A DNA stretch of 59,126 nucleotides, counting the filler, from Dugesia japonica (taxonomy: Eukaryota): assembly GCA_001938525.1 (NCBI GenBank). It is 5 parts of 5 records of this genome, joined end to end, with 100 filler letters (N's around TTAATTAATTAA, not from the genome) between each part and the next. Parts side by side here need not be neighbours in the genome. Positions count along the whole stretch, not along the records: positions 1 to 8,329 come from MQRL01296767.1; 4 more parts are not named here. The stretch is one strand, 5' to 3'. Below, piece by piece: positions 1-36,185 of this stretch. The position numbers and the translations under genes are program-made. How positions within the stretch are numbered: position 1 is the first letter of the stretch; every line of letters begins with the position of its first letter. The notes under the pieces are model-generated. The model worked only from the letters and a program-made list of their open reading frames with translations, was not told where the DNA came from and did no database searches.

Positions 1-354
1 AGGAAACTGATCAGCAAAATCCAATGAGCATGCATCGTAAGAATAAATCCATCTTTCATTTAAAAATCTTCCAGGACGAAAATAGCTTTCGACTACAAAG
101 CTGCGTTGTGCTGTGGTAAGAACCATTCTTCAACGGGAAAATCAGTTAATTGTCTAAAATTTACTAATATTGACTATTTATTCGACTATATTTTAATAAA
201 TATCATTAAATGTAATCCATTAAACATAAATAAGTATGCACTTATTAAACTTGCTTAGTATTAAACATGATTTGTATTCACAAACTTAGAACTAGCAATT
301 GAAACATACAATGACATTAAAAATTTCGAGTCAACTTTTATACTGAACACCCTG
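1..354 (-). mobile_element. 5' end of a Tc1/mariner-superfamily transposon (rosa/DD41D-like), truncated by the window edge
   Basis: TIR CAGGGTGTTCAGTATAAAAG ends at 354 and is followed by TA. Minus-strand ATG at 126 reads MVLTTAQRSFVVESYFRPGRFLNERWIYSYDACSLDFADQFP, resembling the DUF4817-type HTH N-terminus of DD41D transposases. Confidence 0.7.
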
Positions 355-689
355 TACTATTTGTAAAAATTGATTATTTGATTTTAAATAAAAAAATAAA
401 TAAATCAAGTAGTGTTTAGAATTTATTACAAAGCAAAATATAAGCAAATATTTAAATAACGTAAAAAATTTAATGGAATTCAAGCAATCTGAGATTCGAC
501 ATATAAGTCATATGATAAATGTTTACTAAATCAGACTTTGATGTACACAAGACTTGACGCGTAAATTATTAATTCTATAATCAACAATAAAATAATAAAT
601 TAAAAGTTTTAGTGAAAGCCTGAACTGAAGATGATAATATCGATCTAATGTATCAAACAAGCACGATTTATTTTCATTGTACATACTCC

Positions 690-1060
690 GATTGCAATAC
701 TATTTCTACAACTGAGCACACCGTTGCATTAATATTGTCTTAATTAACAACCATAAATGAAGCAACCGGATATTCTCCATTTACCTTATGTATTTAAGAG
801 AAAACCATAATCCGATCGATGTCACTTTTAAACCCATCGTATCGCAGTATATGGATAATCCAGATTATTTAACAAAGATGCAAGAAAAATTACAAGAGTA
901 AAATTCAAACAAGAGCAATACAAAGATTACTATGATAGAAACGCTAAGGAACATAACTTTAAAGTTGGGGATGAAATTAGAATAAAAACGCCAGTTACAC
1001 AAAGAGAATTAACAAATAAAATGATGATCCCATGATTATAGCAGTGAACCTATGTAAAAT
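690..1060 (+). pseudogene. Gypsy integrase C-terminal remnant
   Basis: Broken frames read ..INEATGYSPFTL.. and ..KQEQYKDYYDRNAKEHNFKVGDEIRIK.., the TGYSPF and YYDR..FKVGD motifs of Ty3/Gypsy integrase. Confidence 0.7.
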
Positions 1061-1109
1061 AGGAGAATTAGAAATCGAGCCCTAAAAAGCAGCATAAATA
1101 CAATTAAAG

Positions 1110-1905
1110 ATCAGGTTCACAAAATAAATTATCCCTGTTGACAATAACATTAGTGATGCTAATCACATGGAGTTCCGGTCAAAAGAGAGAGAAAGAATTA
1201 TTCCTCTTGAATTATCCTTGACTTGAATAATTTATTCAGACAGAATTGTTCTCATCGCACCTGAGGATATAAAGAATATAACACAAATATATGCTAGTAT
1301 AACGGATAGACCAACTGCATTAATTAATCGGATATGTGTTTTCAACCATACCACATAAATATAGTCAAGGGATGGGCTAAGTGCAAACAAGAGGTTTAGA
1401 GGCCGATACAATATATCGCATCAGGATTCAATATATAATAATGAAATATAACGAAATTGATTCAACGGAACAGTATACCTTTACTACATTACCAAACAAG
1501 CAACCTCTAACACAACTACAAACATTCACTAAGGTCTATAATATTCCAACAAGACAGCAGACTTCGCAAACAGACAAACCTATCGAAAAAACAAATACAA
1601 TTAAACCAATAATATCTTATAGGATAAAAAACATAAACTCAGATTTAAATTAAAATAGCAAAAATTACGAATATTATAAAAATAAAATTTTGCAACTTTG
1701 GGGTACCACTAAAAATCCTGGATCTGAAAGTAAAATCATACGAAATATCCCTTTAATAATTTTAGGAACAAGCGTAATACTCTTCCTCGTAGCGTTTATA
1801 ATATCGGTATACTAAATTCAAAAACACTATAAGTGGAAGAGGCAGTGTAATCGGCGTCACCATACCCCACATATTCCAAATTACGTCCAATGGACAGAAC
1901 TCTGA
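1110..1905 (+). pseudogene. Degenerate type I membrane protein (signal peptide, FN3-like domain, Thr-rich stalk, TM helix) in the env position
   Basis: Signal-like LSLLTITLVMLITWSSG; FN3-like C-terminal strands GLEADTIYRIRIQY..QYTFTTLP (ORF 1381-1653); TM IPLIILGTSVILFLVAFIISVY followed by a basic tail; several stops and frameshifts. Confidence 0.55.
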
Positions 1906-2036
1906 ATACTTAATACAAAACTTATTTAAATTTTATAAAAAGAAAACAATGAAACTATAACACTAAAATCCACGTGTATATATGTGTATTTACATATAAA
2001 GATATCTATCTGTTTAATATTGTATTCATTGTAGAT

Positions 2037-3290
2037 ATGGACACAGTATCAGATAACCAGAAACTCTTCTTACATAACAATTGCAAAATTATTCTATATG
2101 AAAAAATATCGAATCCTAAAATACCCCTTAACAACATATGGGTGGGATAATGTAGCCAAAATCATTTATTATATCAACGAAGAACCATCTAGTCCAATAT
2201 GTCTTGAAAACCCCACACTTCCTAGAATTATCGCTTGCGGACACTATTTTTGTCTTTATTGCATTAACAAAACTCTACACCTGTCAAAACAATTTATCAC
2301 GCCTTGCCCCATCTGCCGTTCTTGCAAATTCTATCTATCCAGCACCAAGCGTGTGTGTTTCATCACACAAGAAGACCAGAAATCAGTCAAATATTTACAT
2401 TTCTACTTAACGTTAAAGTCCCATATTTCTAATTTACCCAAATTGCCCTCCATCTCCACCCTTTTCCATCAATACGATATCCCAGAATTTAGCGATATTA
2501 TCAGAAAATATAATGTCACTAGTCACCATATCATTCCAAAATATACATACCAACATCCGTAAAGTCAAAACCCTTAGTTACTCCAAGAAGGCCAGAGATG
2601 ATTTACTTATTCAGCTCAATTCAGAACTCGGAAAATTTAATAACCGCATCAAAATACAGGGCAGAGTCGAATTTATTACGGAATTCCATAGAAAGCAAAG
2701 TCAGAATTAAGAACAATTCAACATCATTCACCACCGGAATATTTTGCAATTGTTTTAACAAACAAGGAGACACCATAACTTATTCCTTAACGCCCAACAA
2801 CAGTTAGATTTACTTAATTTACTCATTATGGAATTAACCTACTTAATTACAGGCCGCATCACTTCACTTAGAACTAAAATCATGGAATATAGACATGGTA
2901 TCTTGTATCGTCAAAAGATCTTCAAAGCTGAAATAAATATTACTAATAGACTAATAATAAGCCAAATTTCTAAACAAGCCCCACGTTACAAATTTAAAAA
3001 GGTCATTAGGAAAGAGAAATCAGACCAACAATTCCTGCAGCAGATAGCAACTCACAGTAAATTGACTAAAGGACGACCCACCAGAATACTTATGCAGAAT
3101 CGGTCACCCTTACAAGTCTTCTCTTCACCAACTTCCCCATAAACTAATCTCCCTAACATAAAAGAAGAATTTAACCTATGCGTCTTCAAGGAACCATGCA
3201 ATAAAACTATGCCTTCTGGTCTACATGACATGAGTTGCCACTATTTCACTTTATTTTTGACACAAGATGCAGGACCATCTCTTTCTGAAT
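2037..3290 (+). pseudogene. RNF10-like: Intronless, frameshifted RNF10/Mag2-like C3HC4 RING E3 ligase gene
   Basis: KLFLHNNCK..WDNVAKI..PS(S)PICLENPTLPRIIACGHYFCLYCI..CPIC..KRV parallels the RNF10 FLQANCQF..W..VEQV..CPICL..CGH.FC..CI..CPIC..LKSV pattern. The first RING Cys is mutated to Ser. Downstream frames 2513-3142 continue weakly. Confidence 0.72.
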
Positions 3291-4130
3291 GAGAGACATT
3301 TGTTAAGGGAAGCCCGAAAATACTCACACAAAGGCATACATACAACATAAAACAATCACAAATCGTTAGAACAAACTTTTATTATTTCAAATGTACAAAT
3401 CGTATACCGAAGTTTTATAATTCAAGATTTTTATTTTATCGTTAAATCGAATTTTCATAATCTCTATTAATTATTGCGAATTTTATTATAAACAATCAAA
3501 TCCTTATTACTGAATCTTTATTGTAAACATCGGAATTATTGATTTATTTGCAAGGTAAATTTTAATAAAGATATATATCAATTTTATAAAATTTAATAAA
3601 TATTTATTTTTACGAACAGTAATTTTATAATTTGCATGATAAATCTTTATATAATTTTGTAAATATCCATGTACGATCTATGTATTCTATGTGTATGTCA
3701 TTAGTATAAATAGTGGTCTTAAAGTCANTATTTTTGCCCCTTTTTAAATTACTTGATAAGAGTTAAAATCTACTTGGGTTACAACTCAGAGTAATAAATT
3801 TTAAAAAACACCTATTAAGCTTGTATTTAATTTCGTTCAAATATAATTTAGAAAAGTAATAATCATTTTTTCAATAGCTGACTATAAAGTTTACTTAAAC
3901 TAATATTAATTATATATATTAACGATGGTAAGATATAAGGTCTACATATACAATAATATACAGAAAACCGTTGGGTTGAAATATAATTAAAAATCATTTC
4001 AAACTCACGCAATTGCTGATTTGCTTTGGCAACAATACCCAAAGCATCTCAACACAAATTGGGTCATAGAGAACCTTCTATATCTATTATAATATGGTAC
4101 TCTGATTTATTTTTCAAAAAATTAATTAAT

Positions 4131-4300
4131 TAATATAGTAGCGCACTGGGCCACTTAATCTCTCTCCCCCAGGATAAGTGATGTAACGAAACTTAATCCC
4201 TGGGTATTCTTTAGTTGGAAATTTACAAAGTTATGTCATATTAGGTAATATTACGAAATAGAAATTAAGTGGCACTATTACAACACACACTCACAATTCC
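4131..4300 (+). mobile_element. Partial Polinton-type terminus
   Basis: ATAGTAGCGCACTGG matches the reverse complement of the Polinton end at 37601-37624 and is followed by a C-rich tract. Confidence 0.45.
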
Positions 4301-4309
4301 TTCGTTCTC

Positions 4310-5000
4310 GTTAATGTCAATAAGTTATCTTGCAGCGATTTCGCATCAATTCGATGAGTATTGTGAGACCTATAATGCGTTCACTGTCCTTATCATTAAT
4401 TATTATTGTTATTATTATTGTTACTACTATTGATTTTATTATTGGGGAAACCACTATCATTATAAACATTATTATTATTAAAATCCTCATTTGCAACATT
4501 ATTAATGTTATGATTATTATTATCAACCTTGTCATTAATTATAGTGTTAATTTGAGAAGTGAGTTTTTTGACTAAAATTATTAAATAGGGCAATTAAGAT
4601 AGCCTCGAGAGTAGTAAAATTTACTACCCACATTACTACTTGGCAACTCTATTCAACTGCGGCAATATTGCGAAACTGGGTAGAAGAGTGGATAATTAAG
4701 AAGATAATTTGGAACAGCTCCTTCGTATGATGAGATAAAACATCCAAACGATACCGATTATGTGTTTCGCGGAGATGTTCCCTCTAGATACGCCAGCTGG
4801 CACGGAATAACATGAATTCATTTCATCTGACCATTTATTCATTAAATTTACTTAATTGAATCTTTTTGATTTATTATTTTTTAATATAACCTAACCCCTA
4901 GGAATATCGATGCTGTTCCTCCTGAGGAATTGCAGAGTAATTTTCAATGGGCGGGAAACCCTTTACACTCTGATAATGGCATCCTGGTAGATAGACAAGA
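4310..5000 (+). pseudogene. Diverged copy of the LTR-borne ORF cassette array (ATT-rich segment, cassette b, start of cassette c)
   Basis: EIKHPNDTDY/CFAEMFPLDTPAGTE* (about 4732-4810) vs EVEHPDETDLQCFVEMFPLEPRVDSDEE* (ORF 10324-10509). FQWAGNPLHSDNGILVD (about 4942-4992) vs FKRYYNPHDCNAGIMVD (ORF 10669-11121). Confidence 0.6.
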
Positions 5001-5002
5001 TA

Positions 5003-5600
5003 TAATTTGTCTGAAGATGACAGATATACTGTCAAAACTTGTTTTGCTAAATAAATATTTAATTAAATGGCATGTTAAATTATTTATAAATAGATTGCCA
5101 TTATTCTTTAACTTTTTGAATAATAAATATCCTGATGTTTTGCTGATTTTCAAGAAATACATGAAAGCTTTTCATACTTTAAGAAAGAAACGGATATTTT
5201 TTTAATCGAAACATGTATCGATGAAAATATAGTACCTAAGTTCATTTTTACGAAATCGATACACGATTGTTTAACCAAAGAAGATACAAGAAAGATCCAT
5301 GTGAAAATTTTAAGAAGGATGCTGGAGTGCGAAAAAATTATCTAGTAGAAATTAAACCTACGAGAAAACACAAAAAAAACGTATTTTCATCGCTCTATTC
5401 ACGAAATTTCCCATTCACAATTTTCTCTCATGACAACAATCATAGAAAAATTCCCCTGTATAAATCTTCTAAAGACAATTATGATAAGTAATAGAAATAT
5501 TAGCGATAATATCCCCATGCATGCAACCTTAGTAACACTAGTTAATTGCCTCTCGTATCAATGATTCATGGGCATTAGCTTAAATAAAAATCGGTAGTAA
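5003..5600 (+). mobile_element. Penelope-like element 5' fragment (pLTR plus ORF N-terminus)
   Basis: 5005-5095 matches the pLTR at 49330-49420 (reverse strand). It is followed by ..IETCIDENIVPKFIF, resembling the FL..C....vPKF N-terminal motif of PLE ORFs. Confidence 0.6.
5008..5047 (+). ncRNA. Minimal type I hammerhead ribozyme, mutated copy
   Basis: TGT CTGAAGA T GACAG-ATATA-CTGTC AAAA CTTG TT: perfect stem II, but GAAA is mutated to AAAA. Confidence 0.5.
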
Positions 5601-5959
5601 ATATCGACAATTTAAAACATGTTGTTACCTTTTATTCTAAGCAAATAAAATTTTCTTTCGTTGTTTTAATTATAATTTTTCCCAAATTATATTCGCCCAA
5701 TTCTTAACTCCATTCAGTTGATCAAGGTAATATCATTGTAGTCACTAGGATTTATTATTAATGTCATTGCATTTTTTCTTTATCCCGTTAATTGTTTACA
5801 TATTTGCTTGATTCTCTACTATATCAATGAAAGCCTCAATTGATCTTAAATTAATATTCACCAGAAGAAATTTAGTATTATTGTTATTATTATCTATTCC
5901 TTTAGTGTGATTATATTATTAATATTTTTGCCATAAATCATGATTATTAATATTTTTAT

Positions 5960-6716
5960 TGTTGGACTGAAACAGATCAAGGAAGAAAATAAAGATTAGT
6001 GAGTTAAAACGAAAAATAGATTGAATTGAATGAAACGATTAAAGGAGTAATATAAAACAAAGAATTAAACAACGTAATAATAAAGAATAATTGAGTAAAA
6101 TAAATGATAAAGCCCGAAATGATAAATAAAAAAAGAACTAAATAAATGACCAATAATTTAGAAAATAAATACAACGGTGGAATTAAGGAATGAGAGGTGC
6201 AATAATAAAAGAAACGAGAAGGAAAGTGCGAAGAAATCAGAAATAATACAGTGATTAAAACAAAGGGAACGAATTTAATAAAGTCAAGAAAAAAAATCAA
6301 AACGAAAATTCAGGAGTACCTTAAATAATGATTTAAAAATAAAGAAACGGAGATAAAAATAAGAAAATAATAACACTTATTTATATATTATCAATGTCAT
6401 AAAGTATGTTAGAGAGTTATACAATTATAAAATAATATATATCAAAGGATTATAGAATAGTATGAACGTTATTTAAAAATCAAAGTCAGGAAATATTATA
6501 ATAATTATGTTGGTAAAAGTATATCGCTTGTGTAGAATAATTATATAACAATTTAAGTTAAAGTTAAACCATGATTAAAACAAAAATTTATTGTATTAAG
6601 TAAATATAATGCTAAAAATGAACTTTTATAATTATTATATTCGAGTAATCCAAAAACTAGTATTATCGAATAAAAAAATCAGAAAACCAGATAAGATATT
6701 ATAAAAATTAGACAAG
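5960..6716 (+). mobile_element. 5' part of a Gypsy-type LTR
   Basis: Starts TGTTGGACTGAAACAG, similar to the family start TGTTGGGGTGAAACACC, followed by A-rich U3-like sequence. Confidence 0.45.
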
Positions 6717-7830
6717 TGTTGGGGTGAAACACCCGGTTTTAGAAGAAAAACAAAGCCAGGGGCCCAAATCGAAAAATAATGAAGGGAGTTGGAAAAGAAA
6801 ATTGATTAAGATTAATTAGATATGGTGGAAAAATTGCAATAATTACATCAATACGAAAACAGGCGAAAAGATAAAATGCAAAAAGAAAGCATCAAATGGA
6901 TAAAATACTGACCGAAATCAAGTTAATAATTAAAGAAAATTATAATTATTAATAAAAATTTAAAGAAACGATCGGTAAAATAATAACTAATCAACGAAGG
7001 AAAAATTAATTAATTTACCACAAAAAAGAAGTTAAATTGGGCGAAAATCGGTTTTTGGGGGATAATTTCGCTCTAGGAAATCCTAGAGAATACTAATAAG
7101 AAAAACTGAAAGGAGAAGGTAACTGGTCAATGGAATTTCTAAAGAAGAAAATTCTATCATCACCAGGAAGACCTCTAAAACGGTATGAAAAACGAGCCAA
7201 TAAGGGGCCAGAAAAGAAAAATAAAACAAAGAATAAAAAACCACATGGTGCTCTAAAAATAGCACCAATAGAGAATCGAAATTCTCAGAAAACCACGAAA
7301 ATTGGCACCAGCACCAATGAGAAAAAATAATCAAAAAAAGAAAACAGAAGGCCAATAACAATTGTTCCAAGTTGTAAAGGAAATGGTATAAAAACCCCCC
7401 CTGATTTTAGTCGAAAAACAATCAATTTTCTTGATATTTTAACGGCTGAAAAGCTACACGACTTAATCAATCTTATAAACTCGGAAAAAGTTTCATTACT
7501 AGTTGGTAAATCACTGTCAAAGTAATAACATTCTAAACCAATTTGAATTTACTAATCGAAATAGAAAAGAAATTATTCTACGTAGAATCTTAAAACGAAT
7601 TTGGACTATCAATTTGGAATAAAACAAGAAACGATAGGACTATGAAAAACTCGTTGCAGAAATTTCTCATTATTCTAAAATTAAATTTTTATTTGAACTA
7701 TGTTATTATGAATGTTTCGTATGATAAATATATAATAAATTAAACTTGATATTATTAAATCATTTTATTTAATCACATTATTAACTATAAAAGAGAAATT
7801 GATTAAATTTTTATTAAAGCACCAACTTAC
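6717..7830 (+). mobile_element. Gypsy-type LTR (right boundary uncertain)
   Basis: Starts TGTTGGGGTGAAACACC, identical to 41746. CCAAT cluster and TATAAAA at about 7387. Similar to 8430-9090. Confidence 0.6.
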
Positions 7831-8329
7831 AACGTCCGAGTTCAGCCATTCCAATTTTTACTTGATTAAATTCGTTTGCTTCGAGAAATACTCATGAATA
7901 GTGCATTATCATAGCTAGAGATTATCGATTGATATTTGTAAAGGAGTAAATTCCAATATTACAGAAAATCATTGAGGACGTAATTGATGAATAAATAAGG
8001 CAACCATAAAGTAACGTAAATTCCAGACTATGTCCTGGTAGACGAATCCGATACATACACAATGAATATTGTGTCACTTTTCTTTACCTGCATAGGTGTG
8101 TTATAGATAAATCCAGCAACTCAGTAAACTAATGACTATTTGTTTCATCATGCCAGTGAATTGACGAGCAAACTAGGTCTGAATTTCTACATAATGTTGT
8201 TGGTTGTGTAACCCAGTTCAGATTATCATGTGTGTAGAAATTGTGACTAAGTCAATTTCCGTAAGTTGAGTGATGACGACATTATTATCCGTTATATTTC
8301 AACGATCTATTCATGGTATCATTGGCATT

Positions 8330-8429
8330 NNNNNNNNNNNNNNNNNNNNNNNNNNNNNNNNNNNNNNNNNNNNTTAATTAATTAANNNNNNNNNNNNNNN
8401 NNNNNNNNNNNNNNNNNNNNNNNNNNNNN
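8330..8429. other. Artificial contig linker
   Basis: N44-TTAATTAATTAA-N44, with stops in all six frames; exactly the same linker at 20454, 35154 and 45732. Confidence 0.95.
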
Positions 8430-10073
8430 AATTTGCAGAAAATCGGTGCCAGCACCAATAAAATTAGAAAAGAACTGGTCCAAAAATACCAGCAAATCCG
8501 AACGTAGTAGGGGTGTCCAGAAAATCCTATAAAAGGACCTCCAATTTTCAAGTAAAAATATATTCAATAATTCATTTTACTAAGTAGTTAGAACTACGGA
8601 AAAAATTTGTTATCACTAAGTTGAAAACAATCAATCAATCGTTATTTTCATTTAAGTCACGACAATATACTCCAGTATCGTAATTAAAGTAGTGCGAATT
8701 AAACCAGGCTATCAGCTATATCAATTATCGCTAAATACTAATTGCTGTCGATTCACGAGAAACAAGTTATAGAAACTCTCGGTGCAAAAGGTAAAATACC
8801 AACCGAAATTTCAAATAATTATTATAGTTTAGAAGTCTATCAACCCAATCTCCAAATCAGTCTCAGGATCAGAATTGTCAATTTACCCGAACAACCCGTT
8901 GCAGAAATCTGACCAAATCTTAATAAGTAAACTATTAATTTCTAATTGTTGATCGTTGTAATCTATATATGTTATTAATATTTAATAAATTATTGTTGGA
9001 TAAAATCAATATGAATTTGCTAAATGTATTCCTCTATTTAATTAATTATATGATTATAAGGTTAACTAATTTACAATCGGGATATAAAATCCAACACTGG
9101 GGAAAATAATCGTAATTGTTTCTACTCTTAAGTCCCACTCTAAATAAATTTATCAGTATCAAATTGTCAATCCACTAGGATTAATCATTAAATAGTCACC
9201 CGTTTTATTACTAAAATTCAAAGTTTAAATTTTATAAAAATAACAACACCAAAGAAANNNNNNNNNNNNNNNNNNNNNNNNATATAGAACCAATATTCTC
9301 TTACTGTAGTAGGGGAAAGTTACTATTTTCATAACAAGCTTAACCCAAAAAAGATAATCCATAATTACTATGTCGATAAGAAATTCCAACTTCCTCGCGA
9401 GAATTACCAAGTATCCCAGAATCAATGCGTTTCTAGCAATTAATTATGTATTCCATTTATTAGTGGTCGTTGATAAATTAGAAATTCCTAAATAGCAGAA
9501 TATGTGAATCAAGCAGGATTATAGTTGATCTACCAGAAAACTCTATCCACACACCAACACAATAGAAAAATGCAAGTATAACACACCAGGTTAGTCAGTA
9601 TAACCAATACAGCTATATACATGTTGCTAAGTAACCCCGCGTCACAACGAATTTAAACCTAAANTTGGTGTTAATATATTAATTTTATCAATAAAATTAT
9701 TATTTATTATAAACAGTGAAAAGAGCGATAATCTCAAAGTTATGATTATTAAGGTGACAACGTCACTGTTATTTTGAAAATTATTCTTATGATTATTATT
9801 TTTTTTGGGTGCCCTGACTAATACGTTTAATTTCATCATTACTCGTACGATGATGTTTACCTTCAATAATCTTAGTATCGACGATATTAGCATAGCTACT
9901 GCTTCGTCCTGTTATCATTCATTTCATTATTATTAGCCGGGGTACCATTGTTACAATTGTTCGTAGTCGCATTAGTAGCCTTGTTTACTATTAACGATGA
10001 TCCTAAATTATTACTATCAATACCGTATTAATGTCCTTAGTATTATTAATGCCGGTATGATGACCCAGGCCCC

Positions 10074-10292
10074 ATGGATATTCCCGAAATAGCATTACTA
10101 TTCGTAATCGAACAAGGTCACATGATTAACTTTGGTTTACGAGTAATTCCGTTACCACTCGTAGATCGTCCTTTTACACATTCTGACCTTTCCAATCTTT
10201 GTTTATCCCCAGCTATTAAGTTAATCAATGTTATTCACCGCGTCCTCACCCAGGTCCCGGATGGGCTAAGAGAACTTAAAATCAAAATATAG
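10074..10292 (+). CDS. LTR cassette a, unknown small protein (possibly exon 1 of cassette b)
   Basis: ATG-initiated 72-aa ORF with raised GC. It is followed by a CACTAAC branch point, a T-tract and TAG at 10321-10323. Confidence 0.4.
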   Translation: MDIPEIALLFVIEQGHMINFGLRVIPLPLVDRPFTHSDLSNLCLSPAIKLINVIHRVLTQVPDGLRELKIKI

Positions 10293-10323
10293 ATTTCACT
10301 AACTCCCCATTTTTTGTTTTTAG

Positions 10324-10509
10324 TTGAGGATGGCAAAACTGCGACGCACTCTGAAATGGATCAAACAACAACGACAAGCAGCTATACTTAAACAATTAAT
10401 TGCCTATTACCTGACTAAGGGAGAGGTGGAGCATCCCGACGAGACGGACCTCCAATGTTTCGTCGAGATGTTTCCCCTTGAGCCTAGGGTGGACTCAGAT
10501 GAAGAATAA
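10324..10509 (+). CDS. LTR cassette b (QAAILKQL..HPDETD..CFVEMFPL), unknown function
   Basis: Canonical acceptor immediately upstream, AATAAA at about 10605-10616, homolog at about 4660-4810. Confidence 0.55.
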   Translation: MRMAKLRRTLKWIKQQRQAAILKQLIAYYLTKGEVEHPDETDLQCFVEMFPLEPRVDSDEE

Positions 10510-10685
10510 CTCCCCTCACTCGAATCAAGTTCCCAGACGCGCAAATTTAATCAAACCAATCATGATAATTATCCAGCGTTCGATTAATTGTGCTTACTGA
10601 TCATAAATAAAATAAATTGAATGTCCTTTAAGTGATTCGTTACTATTTACATAATATTTTCTTTTTGGTTGTTTTATTTTGTCAG

Positions 10686-11121
10686 GTTTAATCGACTGTT
10701 CATTATAAAATTTAAGATGGATTTTAAATGGGAAGCACTGTGGGATCAATATAACCAGCGAACTATTTTCAAGCGTTATTATAATCCCCATGACTGCAAT
10801 GCTGGTATCATGGTGGATTATTCGAACTTATCACTGGAGGAAGCAGAAAATGAAAGAGATTGGGCGACCGCAGAACGCCGGGCTTATTATGAATGGAATG
10901 GCCCCTATCGTAGTCGTGAAGTTCTACATCGAGTCACGACTGTCGATCCGGTAACAAGTCAGTCTACCACTCGTTGGCAAGAGGGACCCTCCTTACTTCC
11001 AGTTCCACTTGGCCATATGTCCCGAAGTACTACCTTCGTAGTCGACCTAGGGAACCAATTGTGGGAACTCCGGAACCAGGCGATTGGCGGCTCGGTCGAA
11101 AATACTGAACCCCCAACTTGA
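10686..11121 (+). CDS. LTR cassette c (MDFKWEALWDQY..NP..GIMVD), unknown function
   Basis: Acceptor TTTTATTTTGTCAG ends at 10685; ATG at 10717; long open GC-rich frame; partial homolog at about 4900-5000. Confidence 0.55.
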
Positions 11122-11329
11122 TTACTCACCCGATATTTATCGATTTAAATGTCTGTGTGTTCTAATAATACAATTTAGTTGTCCTTCATTAGTTGTTATT
11201 AACCCCATCGGTTATTTTTCGACAATCTCTCTAATGTAATCAAATAAGAAAATAATTATTTTTACGCTTAGTGTATAGAACTCTTTATCTTAATCTATAT
11301 CCTTTAGTGCATTCCTCCTTAAACCGTAG

Positions 11330-11646
11330 TTTGGCCCCTACAAAAAAGATACGGGCAGATAGCGAAGAGCGTGAAATGTCGTGGGACTTGTATTGGCTTG
11401 CCAAGCGTAATTGGGAGGCGGATACTGCCAACGCCAACAGCAAGGTAAGTCGATACAGAAAGAAATGTGTTGCCTTTCGGAAGGANNNNNNNNNNNNNNN
11501 NNNNNNNNNNNNNNNNNNNNNNNNNNNNNNNNNNNTATCAAGACCGAGAAAATAAACTGTTAGGCGATGTGCTCAAATTGAAAGCTGCGATGCCTTTAGA
11601 GCCCCTGATGGTGGACAAAGGTACCCAAACTCTCCAGAATCACTGA
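11330..11646 (+). CDS. LTR cassette d, helical protein ending in DKGTQT (spans a sequence gap)
   Basis: Acceptor-like CCGTAG ends at 11329. Open frame before the gap; after it YQDRENKLLGDVLKLKAAMPLEPLMVDKGTQTLQNH*. AATAAA at 11661. Confidence 0.45.
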
Positions 11647-11764
11647 TAAAAATCTTTATTAATAAAAGTTTTATGTCTCCACCGGACTCTTGAATTTCTT
11701 TGTGATATTATCAATAAATCTTTCCACTACAGAATTTTACTAAATTGACAATAATTTAACTTNA

Positions 11765-12148
11765 GTGCCGCGAATACAGTTTCCAAACAGTTTGCGCCGT
11801 TGCCATCGCATTATGCGTCGCCTCCTTCTAGAACGTCACTTGAAACGTAAGGTTGACCAGGCTATACTGAAACAATTGGCACAGCGGGATCTGTTAATAA
11901 AAAAATTGGATAACATTATCAAAAAACAAAGTGATTTGGCCGCCCAGAACAAGGCGTTAGAAACTGAAACGAAGCAGTTACTGAAACGGAAGATCGACTT
12001 CCTGAAGCAGTATATAGCCGATCTATCGTGTCAGCTGGGTAATCCAAACACAACCCAGTGGAACAACGACGACGATATTGCAACTTTTAACTTTATCGTC
12101 ACCTCCCCTGATCAATGGTTAGATCCAGGCGCACTAGATCTGATTTAA
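11765..12148 (+). CDS. LTR cassette e, coiled-coil protein (QAILKQL motif)
   Basis: Acceptor-like AACTTNAG at 11758-11765; 127 open codons with a heptad pattern; AATAAA at about 12162. Confidence 0.55.
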   Translation: MPRIQFPNSLRRCHRIMRRLLLERHLKRKVDQAILKQLAQRDLLIKKLDNIIKKQSDLAAQNKALETETKQLLKRKIDFLKQYIADLSCQLGNPNTTQWNNDDDIATFNFIVTSPDQWLDPGALDLI

Positions 12149-12394
12149 ATATGTTATTGATAATAAATGTTTAATTGTAAGAAATTGTTTTAACTCTCTT
12201 AAATAATAATAGGAAAAACATAGAACCCGAACAAAAGGTTTATTGGCGTGCACCTTCCATCAAGGGTAAGGTCAACCACAATAAACTGAAAACCTACCAC
12301 AGGGACGGTAGGATTAAATTCTTGAAAGGGTTCCCCCGAGGACTGCTTTTCCCCAGTCACTTTCCTCAACTCAGGTAGAACCCCAACAATATAA

Positions 12395-13650
12395 CAAAAC
12401 GTACTTCATAACATGTTTCGATTATACACTATGTTATTTACACTAATAGTGTTCTGTTGGCATTGATTTGAATTTCATTTTTGAATACTCCATAAATCTC
12501 ACATATGTTGATGCAGTCAAAGCCTTTGCAAACTTTATATGTAATCTCAAATTTACTTGATGGAGTAATTGACTCTGATTTATATCGAAATCTGGAGCAA
12601 GCACAAATGTAATATATGGGTATTTGGTTTTGAATTCCTCAAGAGTTATTCCAAAATTCATTTCTCATCTAAATATTCCATATCTCGTACAATAGATTGC
12701 ATATAAAGTTGTGCTATGATTATCTTTTTCAAAATCTTGAGTATATGTCTTTCGATAATCACTTTTTTTCGCTAAGAACAAAGAAGTAACATTTAAATAT
12801 TGAAATGTTGAACTAGAGTTTTTATAATCACCATTATATTGACTATTATATTGAAATGTTATCAACATAAAGTTAGGCAAACTACGATTTTCAAAGATTT
12901 CTTCCTTATAAAACGATGCACTATTTTTAATAATTGCAAATCCAACAAGCTCCTTCATTTGTAATGGATAAATAACATTTTGTTAACTTAATCCTATTTG
13001 ATGACCAGCTAATACTCAAGGTTCAACACACACATGTCTAGAAATTAATTTTGCATCCAGTAACTAATATTTGAGTTCATATATTGCTAATTCCAGTCAC
13101 TTTCTAGGGTTTGCTCTCTTCACTCTAATGTGTACATTAACACCAGGAATAAAATATTTTGGTTGATCCATACAATCCAATTACAAGGAACCAAATAGAG
13201 CCAATGGTTTCCATAATCTAATCGACCCTTTCCTATCTGGTTCTGTTCCATATCCAATTGCTTTTAGACAAATATTCTTACTGTCGCCATTATATTTTAA
13301 TATAGTTTTAATCAATGCTTTCTGAATATAAGTTCCATTTCCACATTTTATTTCAAAATTGTTAAATTACAGAATAACAGAATGAAACGTATAGTTGCTA
13401 GGTATTACATCAAAAGCTTCAACTAAATCCTTTCCAACTTTATCAACTACTTTCACTTGTATATAAAACAAAGTATCATTCAAATTTAGATATTCAGTTT
13501 ACAAGCCGTTTATAAAATACTCTACATAATTTCGTGGTTCAGATATTGAATTCATTGGAAATACCGCTTCAAATGCCCCATATTCAATAACAGGTTGAGG
13601 AGATGGTCGATCAAAAATACGCAATTCTGTTTTACAACAAATCATATACA
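12395..13650 (-). pseudogene. Polinton/adintovirus major capsid protein (double jelly-roll), frameshifted
   Basis: CKTELRIFDRPSPQPVIEYG..VEYFING..YLNLNDTLFYIQVKVV..NYTFHS; RSLPNFMLITF..FQYLNVTSL; ITLEEFKTKY..FVLAPD..LRLHIKFAKAL. These motifs are typical of Polinton MCP. Confidence 0.85.
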
Positions 13651-17110: not shown

Positions 17111-17709
17111 AATGATGATCTTTTAAAATATGATCTCATATGTGTAAATGTATTTTCATCACAGAAAATAGTAAAACTCGGTATAAAAATTTATAATATC
17201 AAGGATATGTGGATAATATAAATTTCACATTTGCATAATTTAATCGATTAATTTTGCAGCATGTCTGTAATTTGAATAAGTATAACAAAGTATTTCCTTG
17301 TTTTGTAATTAGCATTTTTTCAAAGGTTGAATTTAATTGGTTCAATTGTGTTAAATATAAATTTGTATATAATACATTAAATTTCTTATTTTAATAGGTT
17401 TAATATTTTAAATGATGATTGAAATAAAAAAATGAAGATTAAAATGAAGAAAGAAGATATACAAACAGATCTAAATTATTATAATAAACAGCTATATCTA
17501 CATTTTGCTTGCGAATGCAACAAGTTTAGATATATGATCCTTAAGAATTTATTCATTAAATTTTATAATTAAAATTGTCTTTTTATTTTATTATTTGTTT
17601 AACATTAAGGTTTTTCTTAATATTAAGATTTTATTTAGTTAATATTTTAGTTAATTTTTATTTGCTATATAATTTTTGAAAAAAAAGAAAACTAATAAAT
17701 TAACAAATA

Positions 17710-18158
17710 ATATTTGTCGAAATAAGTAAACTGTAAACAAACTCCCTAACTTTTCAAATAGGAGAGGCAAATTTTCTGTTAGTTAAAGTACCAATTTTGT
17801 CACCATGTTTCTTGAACCCTGGTATTTCCACTTAGATCAGATCATATATTTATCTGATTTGTCGAATATGATTTCATTACAATCATTGTAATTGATGAAA
17901 ACGTATTTCTTATGAAAATTTATGAATACATTCTTTTCATTTGAACTGATAACGAATATCAGCATATGATATGTAGAACTTTGTATCTTAAAAGGTTCCT
18001 AAATGAAAATAAGAAATACAAAATACTATTACTTGAAAATAATATATTATGTGACTCTTGAGAAATTTCATCTGCATTCCCTGAAATTCCGTAAGCTTTC
18101 CATTTTCCAAAGTGATTGACAAAAAATTTTCTTTGATAAAAGTTATTATTTGTTGCAT
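17710..18158 (-). pseudogene. Spliced Polinton accessory gene, copy 1
   Basis: Exon 1 18158-18033 (42 codons, ends FQ); 34-nt GT-AG intron 18032-17999; exon 2 EPFKIQSSTY..; homolog at 36180-36656. Confidence 0.65.
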
Positions 18159-18755
18159 TTTAAAAAAATTGAAAATTTTTAAAAGCTTTTGCTTATTTAC
18201 TCGATGTTGATAAGCAATTAATGTATAGTTTGTATGCAACTATTTTATTGGTTGAAATTGGTATGAATTTGTGTTACTTTTGTTCTACATCCTAGTTTGG
18301 TTGGTTATTCTTAAGTTAAATTTTCTAATTGCAAAAGGAGTGCAATACAAGTTCAATACAATTGCAAAGCATTTCCACGTTTTTGATTTGTTGAATTTAA
18401 CTGGGTAGATTGTGTTACATAAAATCGGTTGTGTAATTTGCATTTTATAATTTCTGAGCAATCAACCGTTTCAATAAGTTTAAAATTTTTTATTACAGAT
18501 AAATAATAATATTTGTTTGTGTGTTTAATAAAGTGAGATAAAATTTTTGTGAGATTGTGAAAGATTTAAAGTATTGATGAAAAATTTAAATAAATAAATA
18601 AAAATATTTTGAAATAAAGTAAATTAAATTAATTTTAAATAAATTAAGTTTCAGTGTTAAAAATTCAAAAATGATGGTTGGATAATAAAGTAAAATTTTT
18701 AACGTGAAAGAAAATTTGTCTTAAATTTTAAATAAAATGTTTGAAATAAATAAAA

Positions 18756-20553: not shown

Positions 20554-22273
20554 TACAGAGTGCGCTGGTATTAGGTTATCCAATTTAGTAGCCAATTCTC
20601 TTCGTTGAATATCTGTTAACTCTGGTTAGAGAACAAATGATTCCTTCAACTTTTCGCTCCGTATGCTATTAGTTATAAACAATGTAGCTGTTTCATATAA
20701 TGACTTTTTACTTGAAAATATTTCATTGACAAGCTTTCTAACTCTAATTTTAAAATTTCTATATTTGTCATTTGGTTTCTGCATTACTTTTGACAAGATT
20801 GAAACTTTATCGACCAATTTTTCTTGAATAATTAATGATTCTTCACAAATGTCATTAGATAATTTCTGAACTTCTTTTGTTTTTTCCAACCACAATTCCT
20901 TAGCATCGTATCGCATTAGAATATCAAAGGCAAACGATAATTCCATCTGATTGAAAGGTACAAATTCCTTTGTTGTTTGAAGCTACTTTTTAGCTGTATC
21001 TGATGATCCATCAAAGAATCTCGGCTTTGCAATTTGTAACCCCTGAGTTGAAGACGGTAATTTTGAAATAAAATTTGTCTTTCATCTTTTTTTGCCATTG
21101 TGTTCACTGTTACGTGATCGCCAGTTAGAACACAAGATTCTTCCATAATTTTTATTTATTAAAATACGAATAATAATTACAAAACTGATAATATTTACAC
21201 AATGTTTATATATCAATTTATAACTGATATATAACTATATTTATGCTTCATATACGCGGCTACCTTTTTTGCTCCAGCATGACACAAAAGATGGTGTATC
21301 TTCATTATACCTTCTTCTACTTTATCATCAAGTATTCATGTTCCTTCATCATTTTCATCAAAATTGCTTTGTTTCATTTGAATATCTANNNNNNNNNNNN
21401 NNNNNNNNNNNNNNNNNNNNNNNNNNNNNNNNNNNNNNTACAGAGTGCGCTGGTATTAGGTTATCCAATTTAGTAGCCAATTCTCTTCGTTGAATATCTG
21501 TTAACTCTGGTTAGAGAACAAATGATTCCTTCAACTTTTCGCTCCGTATGCTATTAGTTATAAACAATGTAGCTGTTTCATATAATGACTTTTTACTTGA
21601 AAATATTTCATTGACAAGCTTTCTAACTCTAATTTTAAAATTTCTATATTTGTCATTTGGTTTCTGCATTACTTTTGACAAGATTGAAACTTTATCGACC
21701 AATTTTTCTTGAATAATTAATGATTCTTCACAAATGTCATTAGATAATTTCTGAACTTCTTTTGTTTTTTCCAACCACAATTCCTTAGCATCGTATCGCA
21801 TTAGAATATCAAAGGCAAACGATAATTCCATCTGATTGAAAGGTACAAATTCCTTTGTTGTTTGAAGCTACTTTTTAGCTGTATCTGATGATCCATCAAA
21901 GAATCTCGGCTTTGCAATTTGTAACCCCTGAGTCTAAGACGGTAATTTCGAAATAAAATTTGTCTTGCATCTTTTTTTGCCATTGTGTTCACTGCTACGT
22001 GATCGCCAGTTAGAACACAAGATTCTTCCATAATTTTTATTTATTAAAATACGATTAATAATTACAAAACTGATAATATTTACACAATGTTTATGTATCA
22101 ATTTATAACTGATATATAACTATATTTATGCTTCATATACGCGGTTATCTTTTTTGCTCCAGCATGACACAAAAGATGGTGTATCTTCATTATACCTTAT
22201 TCTACTTTATCATCAAGTATTCATGTTCCTTCATCATTTTCATCAAAATTGCTTTGTTTCATTTGAATATCTA
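20554..22273. repeat. Near-identical 835-bp direct duplication (20554-21388 and 21439-22273)
   Basis: Offset 885, separated by a 50-N gap, about 1% substitutions. Probably haplotype or assembly redundancy. Confidence 0.85.
21440..22031 (-). pseudogene. Frameshifted ORF, possibly gag-like from a second retroelement (duplicated at 20554-21146)
   Basis: Overlapping frames 22031-21801 and 21831-21511, helical composition, adjacent to Gypsy pol. No diagnostic motif. Confidence 0.35.
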
Positions 22274-31533: not shown

Positions 31534-33015
31534 TTAATCATCTTTTGGTAATATTTCTGATGTCAAAACCAATGCATCAGTTGTTTGGTTCAAATCTGAA
31601 GTCGGAGTAGATTCATTTGTTATTTGTATGATATATTTTTTTGAATTGTTAGACTGTTTTTCTTTAAATGAAGATTGTAATTCAGAAATCATTTTGATAT
31701 TTGTAAATTCTAACAAATTCGTTTCACTTTTACTGTGAGTTTTTCGCATTTTTGATAGAAGACTAATTGCTTTATTTCTCCATTCATTAATCTTATTTGA
31801 AGAGAATTGATTTGATTTTGTCTTTATTGATAAGGAACTTTTATTGGCGTTTGATACGTTAAATGTATTATTTAGATTGTCTTTTGAAGTGAACATATCT
31901 GTGACTGCTGTTTCACTAGCTTGTGGGCCGACTTTCACTTTACTTTTTCTCGAATTGAGATTTCGAATTTGACTAATATCGGATTGCCGACGAGACAATC
32001 GAAGATTGTCAGATGGATTTGCTGTTATTGTCTGACTAGAGCTTTGCGCATTTTTATGTTCGGCATAAAGGGCAAACGCTTCACGATCAACGAATAATGG
32101 ATCAACTTTAATTAAAGTGCCTACCAAACGATCATTTTCTTCTTCAATTAAATCCATAACAAGACGAGTGTTATGAATTTCTTCTAATAAATCATCTTTC
32201 ATTTGATTCATTTGACGAATTTTATCATAAAATTTAACTTCAAGTAGTCTTTGTAAATCTATTTGATCCTGAAGAAACGTAACTGAATCTAATAATCTTC
32301 CTAGAATTCTTTGTAATCGTGTATAAATATCTCTAAGTCTGTCACATATTTGACCGGATTTTTTTATTAATTCAAATTCTGGTCTTTCTGTCCAAAAGAA
32401 AAGTCGATCAACAAGACTGATACTATCTGTCATTAATGGCATACAATAGCAAGATATCTGTGTTAGTGCTAAAGTAAAATGGAGTTGTAAATAAAATAGA
32501 TCTTTGTAAAATTCCAATAATGGTCGAAGATTTTCTTTTAATTCAGCTTGAGCAGAATCAATTCTATGAGCAATATTTTCTAATACTGAAATAAAAGTTG
32601 AATCTTTTGCATTGTGAGTAATATCATTTAAATTTTTAAAGCATGACTTAAACAAATTACTTCGACAACTTTTAACTCGCCGATTCGAAGTTTCTGCAAT
32701 AAACTTTTCTCCGTGATTTCTTAATTCATTAATTAAAGCATCATTATGTCGTTCTCTGATATGCATCATTTCTTTTTGGGAATTTAAATCATTTTCCAAT
32801 TGTTCAATTTCCAATTCTCCGCTTTTGATCTGTTCAATAATAAACTCTTTAGTGATTATTCTATTTTGTTGATCCCATAAATTCCTTAAAGTTTCTAAAT
32901 GCTTAAAACAAAGTAGAAATTCGTCTTTGACTTGTAAAATTATTCGCAGTTCTCCTTGTATTGATGAAGGATAGATTGGTAACAAGTCTTTGCTACTCTC
33001 TATGGTACTAAACAT
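31534..33015 (-). CDS. Hypothetical 493-aa coiled-coil protein, single exon, probable host gene
   Basis: The only long uninterrupted ATG-to-stop ORF. Helical/heptad N-terminal 320 aa and a Ser/Asn/Lys-rich tail; no TE motifs recognised. Confidence 0.75.
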   Translation of the reverse strand: MFSTIESSKDLLPIYPSSIQGELRIILQVKDEFLLCFKHLETLRNLWDQQNRIITKEFIIEQIKSGELEIEQLENDLNSQKEMMHIRERHNDALINELRNHGEKFIAETSNRRVKSCRSNLFKSCFKNLNDITHNAKDSTFISVLENIAHRIDSAQAELKENLRPLLEFYKDLFYLQLHFTLALTQISCYCMPLMTDSISLVDRLFFWTERPEFELIKKSGQICDRLRDIYTRLQRILGRLLDSVTFLQDQIDLQRLLEVKFYDKIRQMNQMKDDLLEEIHNTRLVMDLIEEENDRLVGTLIKVDPLFVDREAFALYAEHKNAQSSSQTITANPSDNLRLSRRQSDISQIRNLNSRKSKVKVGPQASETAVTDMFTSKDNLNNTFNVSNANKSSLSIKTKSNQFSSNKINEWRNKAISLLSKMRKTHSKSETNLLEFTNIKMISELQSSFKEKQSNNSKKYIIQITNESTPTSDLNQTTDALVLTSEILPKDD

Positions 33016-33686
33016 AGTTCAGTTTTATTATTAAATGAAATTTAGTAGTAATTTGATAAAATCAGATTTATTATTAAAATTTTATTGATTTACTTGGAAA
33101 TAAGCTTTATCAGATTATTTATTCAGAAAAGAATATTAAAAATAAATTTACAATTATTGTTTGAAACAAAAGAATTGAAAAAATATATTAAAAGGAAAGA
33201 CGTTATTATATTATATTATTACTATATTCTCCGTCCATTTCCAACAGATCACTTTATGGAGATTCATGTACAGGGCGCGTTCTTTGCGACAATCTTGCTA
33301 ACAGCCGTCTACGTGCAGAAGATGTGATTTTCACTAAAATCCCTATTTTTCATTATGGTCTAACCTAGGCAGTCAGCTCTGTGCGCCACAATGAGATGCT
33401 TTAGCTTTCGACCAGTTTTGTCAAATTAAATATTAGATTCAGTCATTGTCGATCATATCTGCAAATAATTGAAAAGGACTTATTGTGTTAATAATTTGAA
33501 AATTTGAGTAAGAAAATTGGCAATGTTAACCAATCAGAAATCAGGAAAAATGTGTATGTGTGTTAGGTTACGGTGTATTTATGTTGGTTTTTAATAGAGT
33601 AATGAGTCATTTTTTGACTCTCGTTCCAAGTGTGGTACACTTGACGTGTTAATTAGCTACTTACAAAATATTTTTATTGTAAGTAG

Positions 33687-35052
33687 TGTTGTGGCGAAAC
33701 ACCTTGAATGGAAAGTAAAAATAGCGGTAGGTAAAGCCGAAAATGAAAAGATAAGTCACGAAATGGGGAAACAAAGAACCCAGACAAAGGAAAGTCACAA
33801 TTCAGTGAAGGAAAGGAATAATTAAAAGAAAAACCCAGGTTGGTAGTTAAAACCAACATAATAACCAGCAAAATCTAANGTTACAGCAAGAAATAACCCA
33901 GAAATAATTAAGCCAAAAGGAAGAAAAGAAGAAATAGAAGCTATCAGCCAGATAAAGAGAATCATGAATAACAATTAGTTCATTGGGCAAAACTGAGAAA
34001 ATCATATTGAACTAATAATTGGTGAAAGTAAATAAATTTAAAATAATTAATTAAATTAATTAACGAAAGAAGAAATGATGAACTTAAATTAATTTCAGAA
34101 AAACAAAGAAATGAACATATAATTAAATTTTATGAAGAAAATAAAATAATTTATTTATTTAAATAAAATAAATCATATGAATTAAAATGATTTATTTCGA
34201 AGCAGAAAATAAATATTTTTTCAAAAATAAGAAAAATGAAGGTTTCCGCTTGAGTTAAAATTGACAGATAAGAAAATTCTGGTCAAGAAAAAATCGGAGA
34301 TTTCGAAAATCTAAGGTAAAAAGTCGTAGCAAGACTATGAAAGAAGATATAAGGGTTTGAGGATTGACCAATGTTTTTGTAATCTAAAAATATCAACTAA
34401 TAAAAAGAAATCATGTGACGATCAAGTCAAAAGGAACATTAGAAAATTCGTATGATGTCAAATAACCAATGAAAGAAACGAGGGTGTGAAGAGAACCGGT
34501 ATAAATACNNNNNNNNNNNNNNNNNNNNNNNNNNNNNNNNNNNNNNAAAATCCTGAAGTTAGACGAAATATTTTTCAATTATCACAGAAGGTGATTATTT
34601 TTTACTATTTTATTACCGTTGCAACGATTTCCCACTTAATGAGTTACAGAAGTTATGGAACCCAAAATAATTGAAGTCATTATGCAGATGTGGATCCGAA
34701 GTTAATGGTTTAGTGGTATACAATTGGTGGTCACGATAAGTCCAATAATAATTAACAAAATAATATAACTTTCCATAACCGGATTTTCTTTTATTTAATA
34801 TGGTTATATTTTATTTATATTCTTTTGTCAAACCGACACCATTAACCAATAAAGATTGAGTAGTTCTAAAAATTTAGCGAGTATTACGAAATTGAACAAA
34901 AACCGAAGGTATGCGAGTCTGTACTCGGATTCCGAGTCAACGGCTCCATTGCAAAGAACTGAATTTTTTGGGCCGCCAGATTAAATTCTTCGAGGGGTTT
35001 TATTAGGCCGACTACCCTAGACTTGTCAACTCACCAAGATAAAACCCCAACA
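33687..35052 (+). mobile_element. Gypsy-type solo LTR with GTAG target-site duplication
   Basis: gtag|TGTTGTGGCGAAACACC...TAAAACCCCAACA|gtag; CCAAT boxes and TATAAA at about 34500; homologous to 41746-43326. Confidence 0.88.
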
Positions 35053-35741: not shown

Positions 35742-36185
35742 ATGTTGGTTAATATTAATTACAAAGGTAAAGTATGGCAAGATGTAACAAGCAAAATGAA
35801 GTTTTCTATTGGTAAACCTTTTCAATTTGTTGACAAAAGTGGGAAATATATGTTAATATTCTTTAAATCAGGAAATTGTTGAATAATGAGATGTAAAAAA
35901 CCATTTTAAATGGAGAAATTACAATATAATATTAAGGATATTCGTTTGCAATCATTAACAATTGTAATCAATTTGGGAAAAGTTTTCAATTTTTATAAAT
36001 TAACACACGTGACAAAATGTTGGTTTGAACCAGAATTGTTCCCTGCAATGCGTCTTACAAAGTATGATCCTATATGTGTTCACGTATTTTCATCTGAAAA
36101 AATTGTAATACTTGGTATAAAAAATTTACACTATCAGAAATATGTGGATAATATAATTTCTGATTTGTATAATTTAATTGAATAA
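35742..36185 (+). pseudogene. Minimal TATA-binding-protein-like gene (about 147 codons, two in-frame stops)
   Basis: Repeat 1 NINYKG..LIFFKSGNC*IM; repeat 2 QSLTIVINLG..WFEPELFPAMRL..VHVFSSEKIVILG (TBP: YEPELFPGL..IF.SGK.V.TG). Confidence 0.8.

Follow-up and report, generated by a model that had tools for sequence, protein, structure and literature searches.

Accessory genes that lie in or overlap the LTR and are expressed from spliced mRNAs are known from several retroviruses, such as MMTV (sag), HIV (nef) and foamy virus (bet). In these complex retroviruses the ORFs are located in U3, with one per LTR, whereas in the array described here several ORFs are placed downstream of a TATA box; no homology between the two was found. 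Small accessory ORFs are likewise an established feature of Gypsy-type elements (PMC11952523; PMC6431247). According to the account given of the MDG1 group (412, Mdg1, Blood and Stalker), two such frames, sORF1 and sORF2, lie near the LTR promoter and show low dN/dS, their short transcript ends at an internal poly(A) site, and their expression has been demonstrated (PMC11952523). The same account describes sORF1 as nuclear, with a predicted helix-turn-helix, and sORF2 as mediating cell-to-cell transfer (PMC11952523). The likeness to the present array, which is drawn by description only, consists of short accessory ORFs of a Gypsy-type element, one of which (ORF b) is modelled as two helices. 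However, the MDG1 group is described with two ORFs upstream of gag, whereas here four are found inside one unit that has LTR-type ends, and the transmembrane helix and polybasic stretch ascribed to sORF2 contrast with b and c, which are devoid of a hydrophobic helix when inspected by eye and in models. The array does not fall within the sORF1/sORF2 group.

Among planarian elements, Burro/GYPSM1 exceeds 30 kb and encodes a giant polyprotein (MATH, BCL2, BIR, env-like). These giant Gypsy-like elements are described as rich in accessory domains and ORFs (PMC6431247), and they resemble the present array in being Gypsy-like, planarian and equipped with accessory ORFs; however, the passages describing them assign the extra domains to the internal region or the polyprotein and do not mention ORFs in the LTR, whereas here the ORFs lie within an LTR-like unit. 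No description of a row of four ORFs inside a planarian LTR was found in the literature, although Repbase or supplementary files may already annotate it.

The DNA analysed here, hereafter the window, is a stretch of 59,126 nucleotides from Dugesia japonica that is composed of five contigs joined by linkers and filled throughout with transposon debris, with ~28% GC and ~72% AT (an A/T content of >70% is given for a planarian, PMC11410931). Positions 4310-5002 of contig 1 (1-8329), referred to as copy A, likely represent one broken copy of a pair of neighbouring small ORFs, b and c, both of which are intact in copy B, a unit at 8430-12388 of contig 2. In this explanation, of which the homology, the order, the silent-site bias, the breaks and the single-copy state are observed directly, the unit is likely an expanded Gypsy-type LTR and its ORFs are likely selected accessory proteins, each with its own mRNA. 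If this is true, hundreds to thousands of solo LTRs, usually deemed non-coding, could encode peptides, and these would represent new protein families, unmatched in Pfam, PDB and 1.8 billion representatives bar one. The stretch 4310-5002 itself matters only as a fossil and contains no working gene.

Copies A and B and their carrier units

The features of the two copies and of the related units are as follows.

4330..4342, plus strand: 13-nt short motif of copy A, present again in the two short LTR-like units (34619, 42822), ~120 nt 3' of the TATA box
4380..4600, plus strand: ATT-rich low-complexity segment of copy A, 21% GC, positional counterpart of ~9665-10050
4667..4810, plus strand: remnant of ORF b in copy A, with the conserved core at 4732-4789
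4811..4901, plus strand: b-c spacer of copy A, with ATTAAA at 4841, a T-rich tract and AG at 4900-4901 (CCCTAG)
4902..5002, plus strand: remnant of ORF c in copy A, N-terminal part only, cut at ~5002
5003..5097, plus strand: terminal part of a Penelope-like repeat, starting at ~5003-5007 and containing a hammerhead-like core (CTGAAGA, stem)
6717..8329, plus strand: 5' part of a second long unit, which starts TGTTGGGGT, has its TATA box at 7387 and is cut by the contig end
8430..12388, plus strand: long LTR-like unit of copy B, at least 3.96 kb, ends ACCCCAACA, with its TATA box at 8528, truncated on the 5' side where the contig begins
10330-10509, plus strand: intact ORF b, 59 aa, with a basic N-terminal helix, an EHPDETD..C...MFPL core and an acidic tail
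10717-11121, plus strand: intact ORF c, 134 aa, the first 67 aa being 51% identical to the protein P0001
11376..11646, plus strand: ORF d, containing an assembly gap (11486-11535) and followed after ~15 nt by AATAAA at 11661
11813..12148, plus strand: ORF e, 111 aa, coiled-coil-like, followed after 14 nt by AATAAA at 12162
33687..35052, plus strand: short LTR-like unit without ORF array, with the 4-bp target duplication GTAG
41746..43326, plus strand: short LTR-like unit without ORF array, with the 4-bp target duplication ATAT and 9-bp inverted ends

As the original prediction had it, the cassette order recurs on a different contig: ATT-rich segment, b, AT-rich spacer and c follow each other identically in copies A and B. 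In the unit of copy B the ORFs b, c, d and e all start with ATG, and in both copies the cassettes have a GC content of 42-48%, as opposed to 22-33% in the spacers. The match between the two ATT-rich segments is not above that of triplet shuffles (60 of 500 score as high), and scores as high are reached in only 0.2% of 1,664 real segments; the b-c spacers are also alignable, with 3 of 500 shuffles and 0.5% of 2,704 real segments being as good. Copy A shows that the order and b, and probably c, are older than a deep division within the family. The 13-nt motif at 4330..4342, which may recur by chance, gives a weak hint that copy A was derived from a transcribed LTR segment of this kind.

When the carrier is considered, TG..CA termini with short inverted repeats, as in Ty3/Gypsy elements, are present in both short units, at the 3' end of copy B and at the start of the 6717 unit, and target-site duplications within the 4-6 bp range of these elements surround the two short units. 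The 3' end of copy B can be aligned with the short unit 33687-35052 (as good in 0 of 300 shuffles) and its 5' part with 7297-7426 (2 of 300). A TATA box is found 670-953 nt from the unit start (812-953 nt in the short units) and AATAAA or ATTAAA 204-280 nt from the end, the latter range being that of the poly(A)-like signal of the short units, and both motifs are common in the window. The short units, in which no plus-strand ORF of 35 aa was found, fit solo LTRs of a Gypsy-type family. Since no unit in the window (contigs of 8-15 kb) adjoins gag-pol, and neither a PBS nor a paired LTR was seen beside any of them, the LTR identity is one that we infer, and the array is, judging from these sequence features, probably located in an LTR.

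It is unlikely, by comparison, that real peptides are borne by a non-LTR carrier, be it host or virus cargo or a non-autonomous DNA transposon, such as a Ginger/TDD-like element, whose ends read TGT..ACA and which leaves 4-bp duplications. Such a carrier would account for the lack of gag-pol, PBS or paired repeat beside any unit and for ends that are inverted for 9 bp, and the 4-bp duplications suit both classes. However, the inverted ends stop at 9 bp, whereas Ginger-type TIRs are generally longer than that; the layout with internal TATA and poly(A) signals and the strong 5'-3' asymmetry suit an LTR, and no host or viral homologue was found in the searches.

With the LTR as the preferred carrier, the contribution of copy A remains an indirect one. 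It had been put forward as independent support for the LTR gene array, and its homology with copy B does provide support; however, copy A is devoid of LTR ends of its own and thus supports the array only through this homology. A candidate LTR 3' end at 4900-4930 of copy A was rejected, with 248 of 300 shuffles scoring as well.

Further traces of similar units are found elsewhere in the window. Positions 5960-6716 (plus strand) start TGTTGGACTGAAAC and resemble the 5' part of the LTR-like units in being A-rich; they probably represent another, older LTR start that was interrupted by the 6717 unit. At 44464-45476, on the minus strand, the short LTR-like unit is represented a third time, by a partial copy. 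Positions 12238-12373, near the 3' end of unit B, are the best conserved stretch of this LTR family: in two DNA runs the depth there is ~30,000 times the single-copy value, and no other segment of the unit has as many RNA reads, which lie on both strands.

Putative processing signals of the ORF array

In the mechanism proposed here, the unit would comprise an A-rich U3, a TATA box, a long transcribed part and a last poly(A) signal ~200 nt from the conserved 3' end. We would regard the array as an expanded R region, because the TATA box and the last poly(A) signal are ~3.6 kb apart in copy B (8528 to 12162) where the short units have ~350 nt. A short leader would be transcribed from the LTR promoter and joined by cis-splicing to any one of several acceptors; the ORFs would thereby serve as alternative last exons, with a separate poly(A) signal at the end of each, and would encode accessory proteins that selection keeps in active elements. 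To the separate processing of the cassettes, each yielding its own mRNA, we would give about even weight on the basis of the signals.

Acceptor-like sites, in the form of a T-tract followed by AG, precede b, c, d and e at ranks 1, 3, 5 and 10 of the 184 AG sites (combined P ~0.005) in a generic score of our own that was set after the sites had been seen by eye; the AG before b is located at 10323 (rank 1/184) and that before c at 10685 (rank 3/184). AATAAA, which has a density of 3.4 per kb in the window, follows three of the four ORFs (b, d and e) and is absent soon after c; behind b it occurs at 10606 and 10611, 97 nt downstream. In copy A, the spacer does end in CCCTAG (at 4896), as had been predicted, but this hexamer is not found in the b-c spacer of copy B; its other plus-strand occurrences are at 35015, 43238, 44477 and 57414. 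The AG at 4900-4901 ranks second of the 31 AG sites in copy A and in the top 9% of the window. Since ATTAAA at 4841 and AG at 4901 occupy the places of the poly(A) signal and acceptor-like AG of copy B, and since the phase from the AG to c is that of the copy B AG at 10685, CCCTAG in copy A is probably a splice acceptor rather than a mere spacer end.

The family-wide depth on copy B goes up over b, c, d and e and down in the spacers. With the depth of copy A taken as 1, the summed contig depth is ~3,000-3,800 at the TATA region, ~6-126 in the lineage-specific 5' part and ~1,500-2,300 at the b core; c reaches 95-190, and d and e reach 130-250, as against 19-31 for two of the spacers, and the value near the 3' end is ~30,000; these figures are orders of magnitude, since summed depth is no copy number and since many reads and contigs at the b core continue into other sequence, so that the depth there may include other contexts. 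Only one of 12 listed indels falls inside an ORF (P=0.08, not significant). Among RNA reads on copy B, 1 of 175 and 0 of 36 were at least 95% alike (a quarter of each run read), and there was no RNA joint among those listed. Planarian LTR elements are described as piRNA-silenced (PMC8532177), and this could be the reason for the missing RNA, although it does not count as evidence of expression.

Two further candidates in this region were rejected: ORF a (10050-10292), which is unsupported and over which depth is not raised; and an antisense Asn-rich ORF over the ATT segment, with many stops in its frames, where a phase excess among the 20 variants listed for 9752-10235 (40 of 574 rows) matches no open frame.

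The distance of ~60-105 nt from a poly(A) signal to the next acceptor (4841 to 4901; 10611 to 10685; 11661 to 11732/11765) could also point to an operon-like transcript that is resolved by spliced-leader trans-splicing instead of cis-splicing to an LTR leader, and both spliced-leader trans-splicing and operons are reported for flatworms, a planarian included (PMC12582326). This is nevertheless hard to favour: donor-like sites are present 3' of the TATA box (8789, 9752), an upstream exon ending in A would be needed for the in-frame AG|TG of d and e, no spliced-leader read was seen, and in a tapeworm a transcript that starts in an LTR is reported to be cis-spliced to a trans-splice acceptor (PMC4558846). 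Beyond cis-splicing from the LTR leader, a wider and rather doubtful proposal is that the very abundant LTR family carries, from its promoter to the last poly(A) signal, an operon-like row of four micro-genes without known relatives, each with its own acceptor and poly(A) signal. Solo LTRs would then be self-contained units giving regulatory peptides in trans, possibly via the spliced-leader machinery, and the row would be old, with lineages near silent-site saturation.

The acceptor-like AG sites followed by an in-frame TG for d and e are those at 11271, 11307 and 11765 (plus strand), of which 11765 is poor as an acceptor (rank 42/184). The end of ORF d (11536-11646, plus strand) reads ..DKGTQT.. 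after a coiled-coil-like stretch and resembles KxTQT, the binding motif of the dynein light chain LC8. For ORF e, Pfam gave weak coiled-coil matches only.

Homology and probable past selection on ORFs b and c

In a frame-blind DNA alignment, 4732-4788 of copy A and 10423-10481 of copy B reach a score of 39, which was attained by 0 of 300 shuffles, and the two-block protein score of b is 84, as compared with a maximum of 47 among 7,121 other window segments. The DNA around the matching residues had been called barely alignable; actually, it is alignable, since the b core is 68% identical over 59 nt, and so is the spacer. Of the 18 codons aligned between the copies, 12 encode identical residues, six of these through a silent change. 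The 15 differences fall on codon positions 1, 2 and 3 in the ratio 3/1/11 (P=0.002), and pS, which is near saturation, is 0.88 vs a pN of 0.15 (pN/pS 0.17), so that silent changes exceed replacement changes as in a protein-coding gene, in a comparison of two copies only. This bias is somewhat inflated, because it was the alignment itself that set the limits of the codon blocks; in the frame-blind alignment, third positions account for 11 of 17 mismatches (P=0.008). ORF b was very probably a selected peptide in the past. The original prediction of purifying selection on real peptides is thus borne out for b and moderately for c, but as a historical process in the ancestral lineage, not in copy A. 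The peptide itself was in part misread: HPxxTDxxCFxEMFPL is not continuous in copy A, since HPNDTD (4741) and CFAEMFPL (4763) lie in different frames with a 2-nt gap relative to copy B, and FPL is not directly followed by a stop, there being 7 (A) or 9 (B) further codons.

No Pfam family matches a-e, the copy A pieces or P0001 at the curated cut-off, and a sequence search of PDB gave a best E of 0.51. For b, the word-based protein search gave no match, the best hit in the ESM Atlas (0.75) was at chance level, Foldseek with the b model reached E=8.5 at best, and the DNA pattern of the core had 0 occurrences in viral and metagenome contigs; L001 was rejected as a relative of b, being a short match in a stop-containing frame. 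In the model of b (single sequence, pLDDT 71), a long basic helix is followed by a loop that contains the conserved core, and then by a short helix and the acidic tail. By analogy with MDG1 sORF1, b might tentatively be regarded as a nuclear regulator of the element, a role that is possible more than it is probable.

Two resemblances within b may be mentioned. A basic N-terminal helix ending AILKQL is common to b and e (10330-10400 and 11813-11880, plus strand; P ~0.04 vs shuffles), and an internal duplication is possible. At 10447-10509 (plus strand), DLxC followed by the acidic tail resembles Rb-binding motifs of the LxCxE type, but with the Glu one residue too far.

The conserved b core could alternatively act in cis, as an RNA or DNA hairpin serving as a packaging, dimerisation or processing signal, with the peptide motif as a by-product. 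Positions 10410-10490 of copy B do fold at z=-4.0 (0 of 200 shuffles), and nowhere in the array is depth greater than at the b core; however, in copy A 8 of the 22 pairs are broken, one is compensated and 12 are unchanged, folding is reduced to z=-0.2 to -0.8 on the plus strand and -2.1 on the minus strand, the changes in b follow codon phase, and 1-13000 contains no Rfam match at E<=1, all of which makes such a hairpin improbable. An RNA structure that overlaps a real ORF in the copy B lineage would be a variant of this alternative.

Returning to the peptide reading, cassette c of copy A is ~17 codons shorter than that of copy B between the FxW and NP motifs and has no in-frame ATG. The predicted recurrence of c is supported when the profile is built with P0001, but is weak by itself, with a local P of 0.03-0.05. 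Differences in c are distributed over codon positions 1/2/3 as 5/3/6 (P=0.31, unskewed), and over 12 codons pN/pS is 0.38 (Fisher 0.03). P0001, which originates from one 512-base ENA contig, is the sole match to c of copy B among 1.84 billion proteins (E=1.3e-13, 51% over residues 1-67) and starts at the same Met; in the c stretch it keeps six of the seven residues common to A and B (hypergeometric 0.08). With a profile of copy B c and P0001, the copy A peptide comes first among 2,578 non-self window peptides (E=0.57), and with P0001 alone it comes only 7th. The copy A peptide lies ~150 nt behind copy A b on the same strand, with a summed local P of 0.002. Homology of c is likely, given profile rank one, the right strand and the position just behind b, and on this sequence evidence we consider c to be, with good probability, a true homologue and coding. 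As for other relatives of c, no match was found in the word-based protein search, no usable match in the ESM Atlas, none in an alignment against 30-50 aa proteins only, and no related locus among 273 and 386 candidates (0/273 and 0/386). The model of c is of low confidence (pLDDT 51).

Finally, common ancestry of A and B without any protein selection, with c especially being a chance match picked by eye, is improbable: tblastn across the window gives b only E=0.035 and c nothing at E<=10, nhmmer gives E=0.02-0.07, the spacers are alignable too and the local P of c is modest, but the third-position bias of the frame-blind b alignment, the ORF-shaped depth profile and an outside homologue of c that begins at the same Met argue against it.

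Decay of copy A and the insertion at 5003

The b region of copy A changes frame near 4758-4762 and has a second frame change upstream of the core, somewhere from about 4690 to 4732, as well as stops at 4697 and 4705; the start codon is missing where copy B has one, and there is no in-frame start codon for either b or c. DNA reads were checked on 4640-5024 in two DNA runs, X1 and X7. In X1, one contig covers 4640-4805 at a depth of 19.8, and in X7 one contig covers the whole of 4640-5024 at a depth of 11.5, both with 0 differences and 0 gaps, so that neither the frameshift nor the junction with the insertion is an artefact. The other matched contigs in the two runs (7/8 and 6/7) are short matches within the AT-rich spacer, which is also the only part of copy A matched by contigs of organism B (X13; 5/5). 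Copy A is single-copy, with no close relative at 80% identity in those two DNA runs. No RNA was found on b or c of copy A (one run, a quarter read), all four RNA reads falling in the AT-rich spacer, and the sequencing-run search gave no RNA run among the matches listed. Of an open frame, a start codon and transcription, as expected of a functional gene, none was found; copy A is dead, a pseudogene, with hardly any doubt.

The claim that c is cut at ~5003 by a repeat, which had been called a Penelope insertion, was confirmed, the junction being present in one contig, and the repeat has a hammerhead-like core; no continuation of c beyond the insertion was detected in contig 1. Two other copies of the 5003..5097 repeat are present in the window, with identities of 87% (49330-49424) and 77% (41442-41503). 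Minimal hammerheads are reported to occur in the ends of Penelope-like elements (PMC4209133), and such a motif is present in the terminal repeat here: the repeat has the CTGA-n-GA, stem and GAAA core, which is intact in the sister copies at 41474 and 49389, whereas GAAA is altered in the copy at 5003. The hammerhead pattern alone gave 5 matches in a search vs 2.3 by chance. Six-frame reading of 5003-6000 revealed a stop-ridden frame, in which no RT or GIY-YIG domain was identified.

Several other features were observed in the window. Just 5' of copy A, positions 4136-4284 contain a short MITE-like element with imperfect inverted ends (GCCACTTAAT core). Positions 700-3300 (plus strand), which are decayed accessory cargo of another LTR element, include an integrase-like remnant recognised by eye, followed by a frame at 1381-1830 and a C3HC4 RING ORF at 2035-2562; the latter is above the Pfam cut-off, and the former appears by eye as fibronectin type III-like and has a linker rich in Thr as well as a hydrophobic stretch, Pfam giving only an Ig-like match at E=0.05. 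A direct duplicate of 835 nt (20554-21388 and 21439-22273, 98.8% identical) flanks a 50-N gap and is probably an assembly overlap. A 91-aa ORF at 35910-36185 (plus strand) has a TBP-domain match above the cut-off, in a repeat-rich stretch that is partly duplicated at 17119-18348. The sole clear host-type gene scanned is a 494-codon open frame at 31534-33018 on the minus strand, which matches DUF5743 at E=5e-64.
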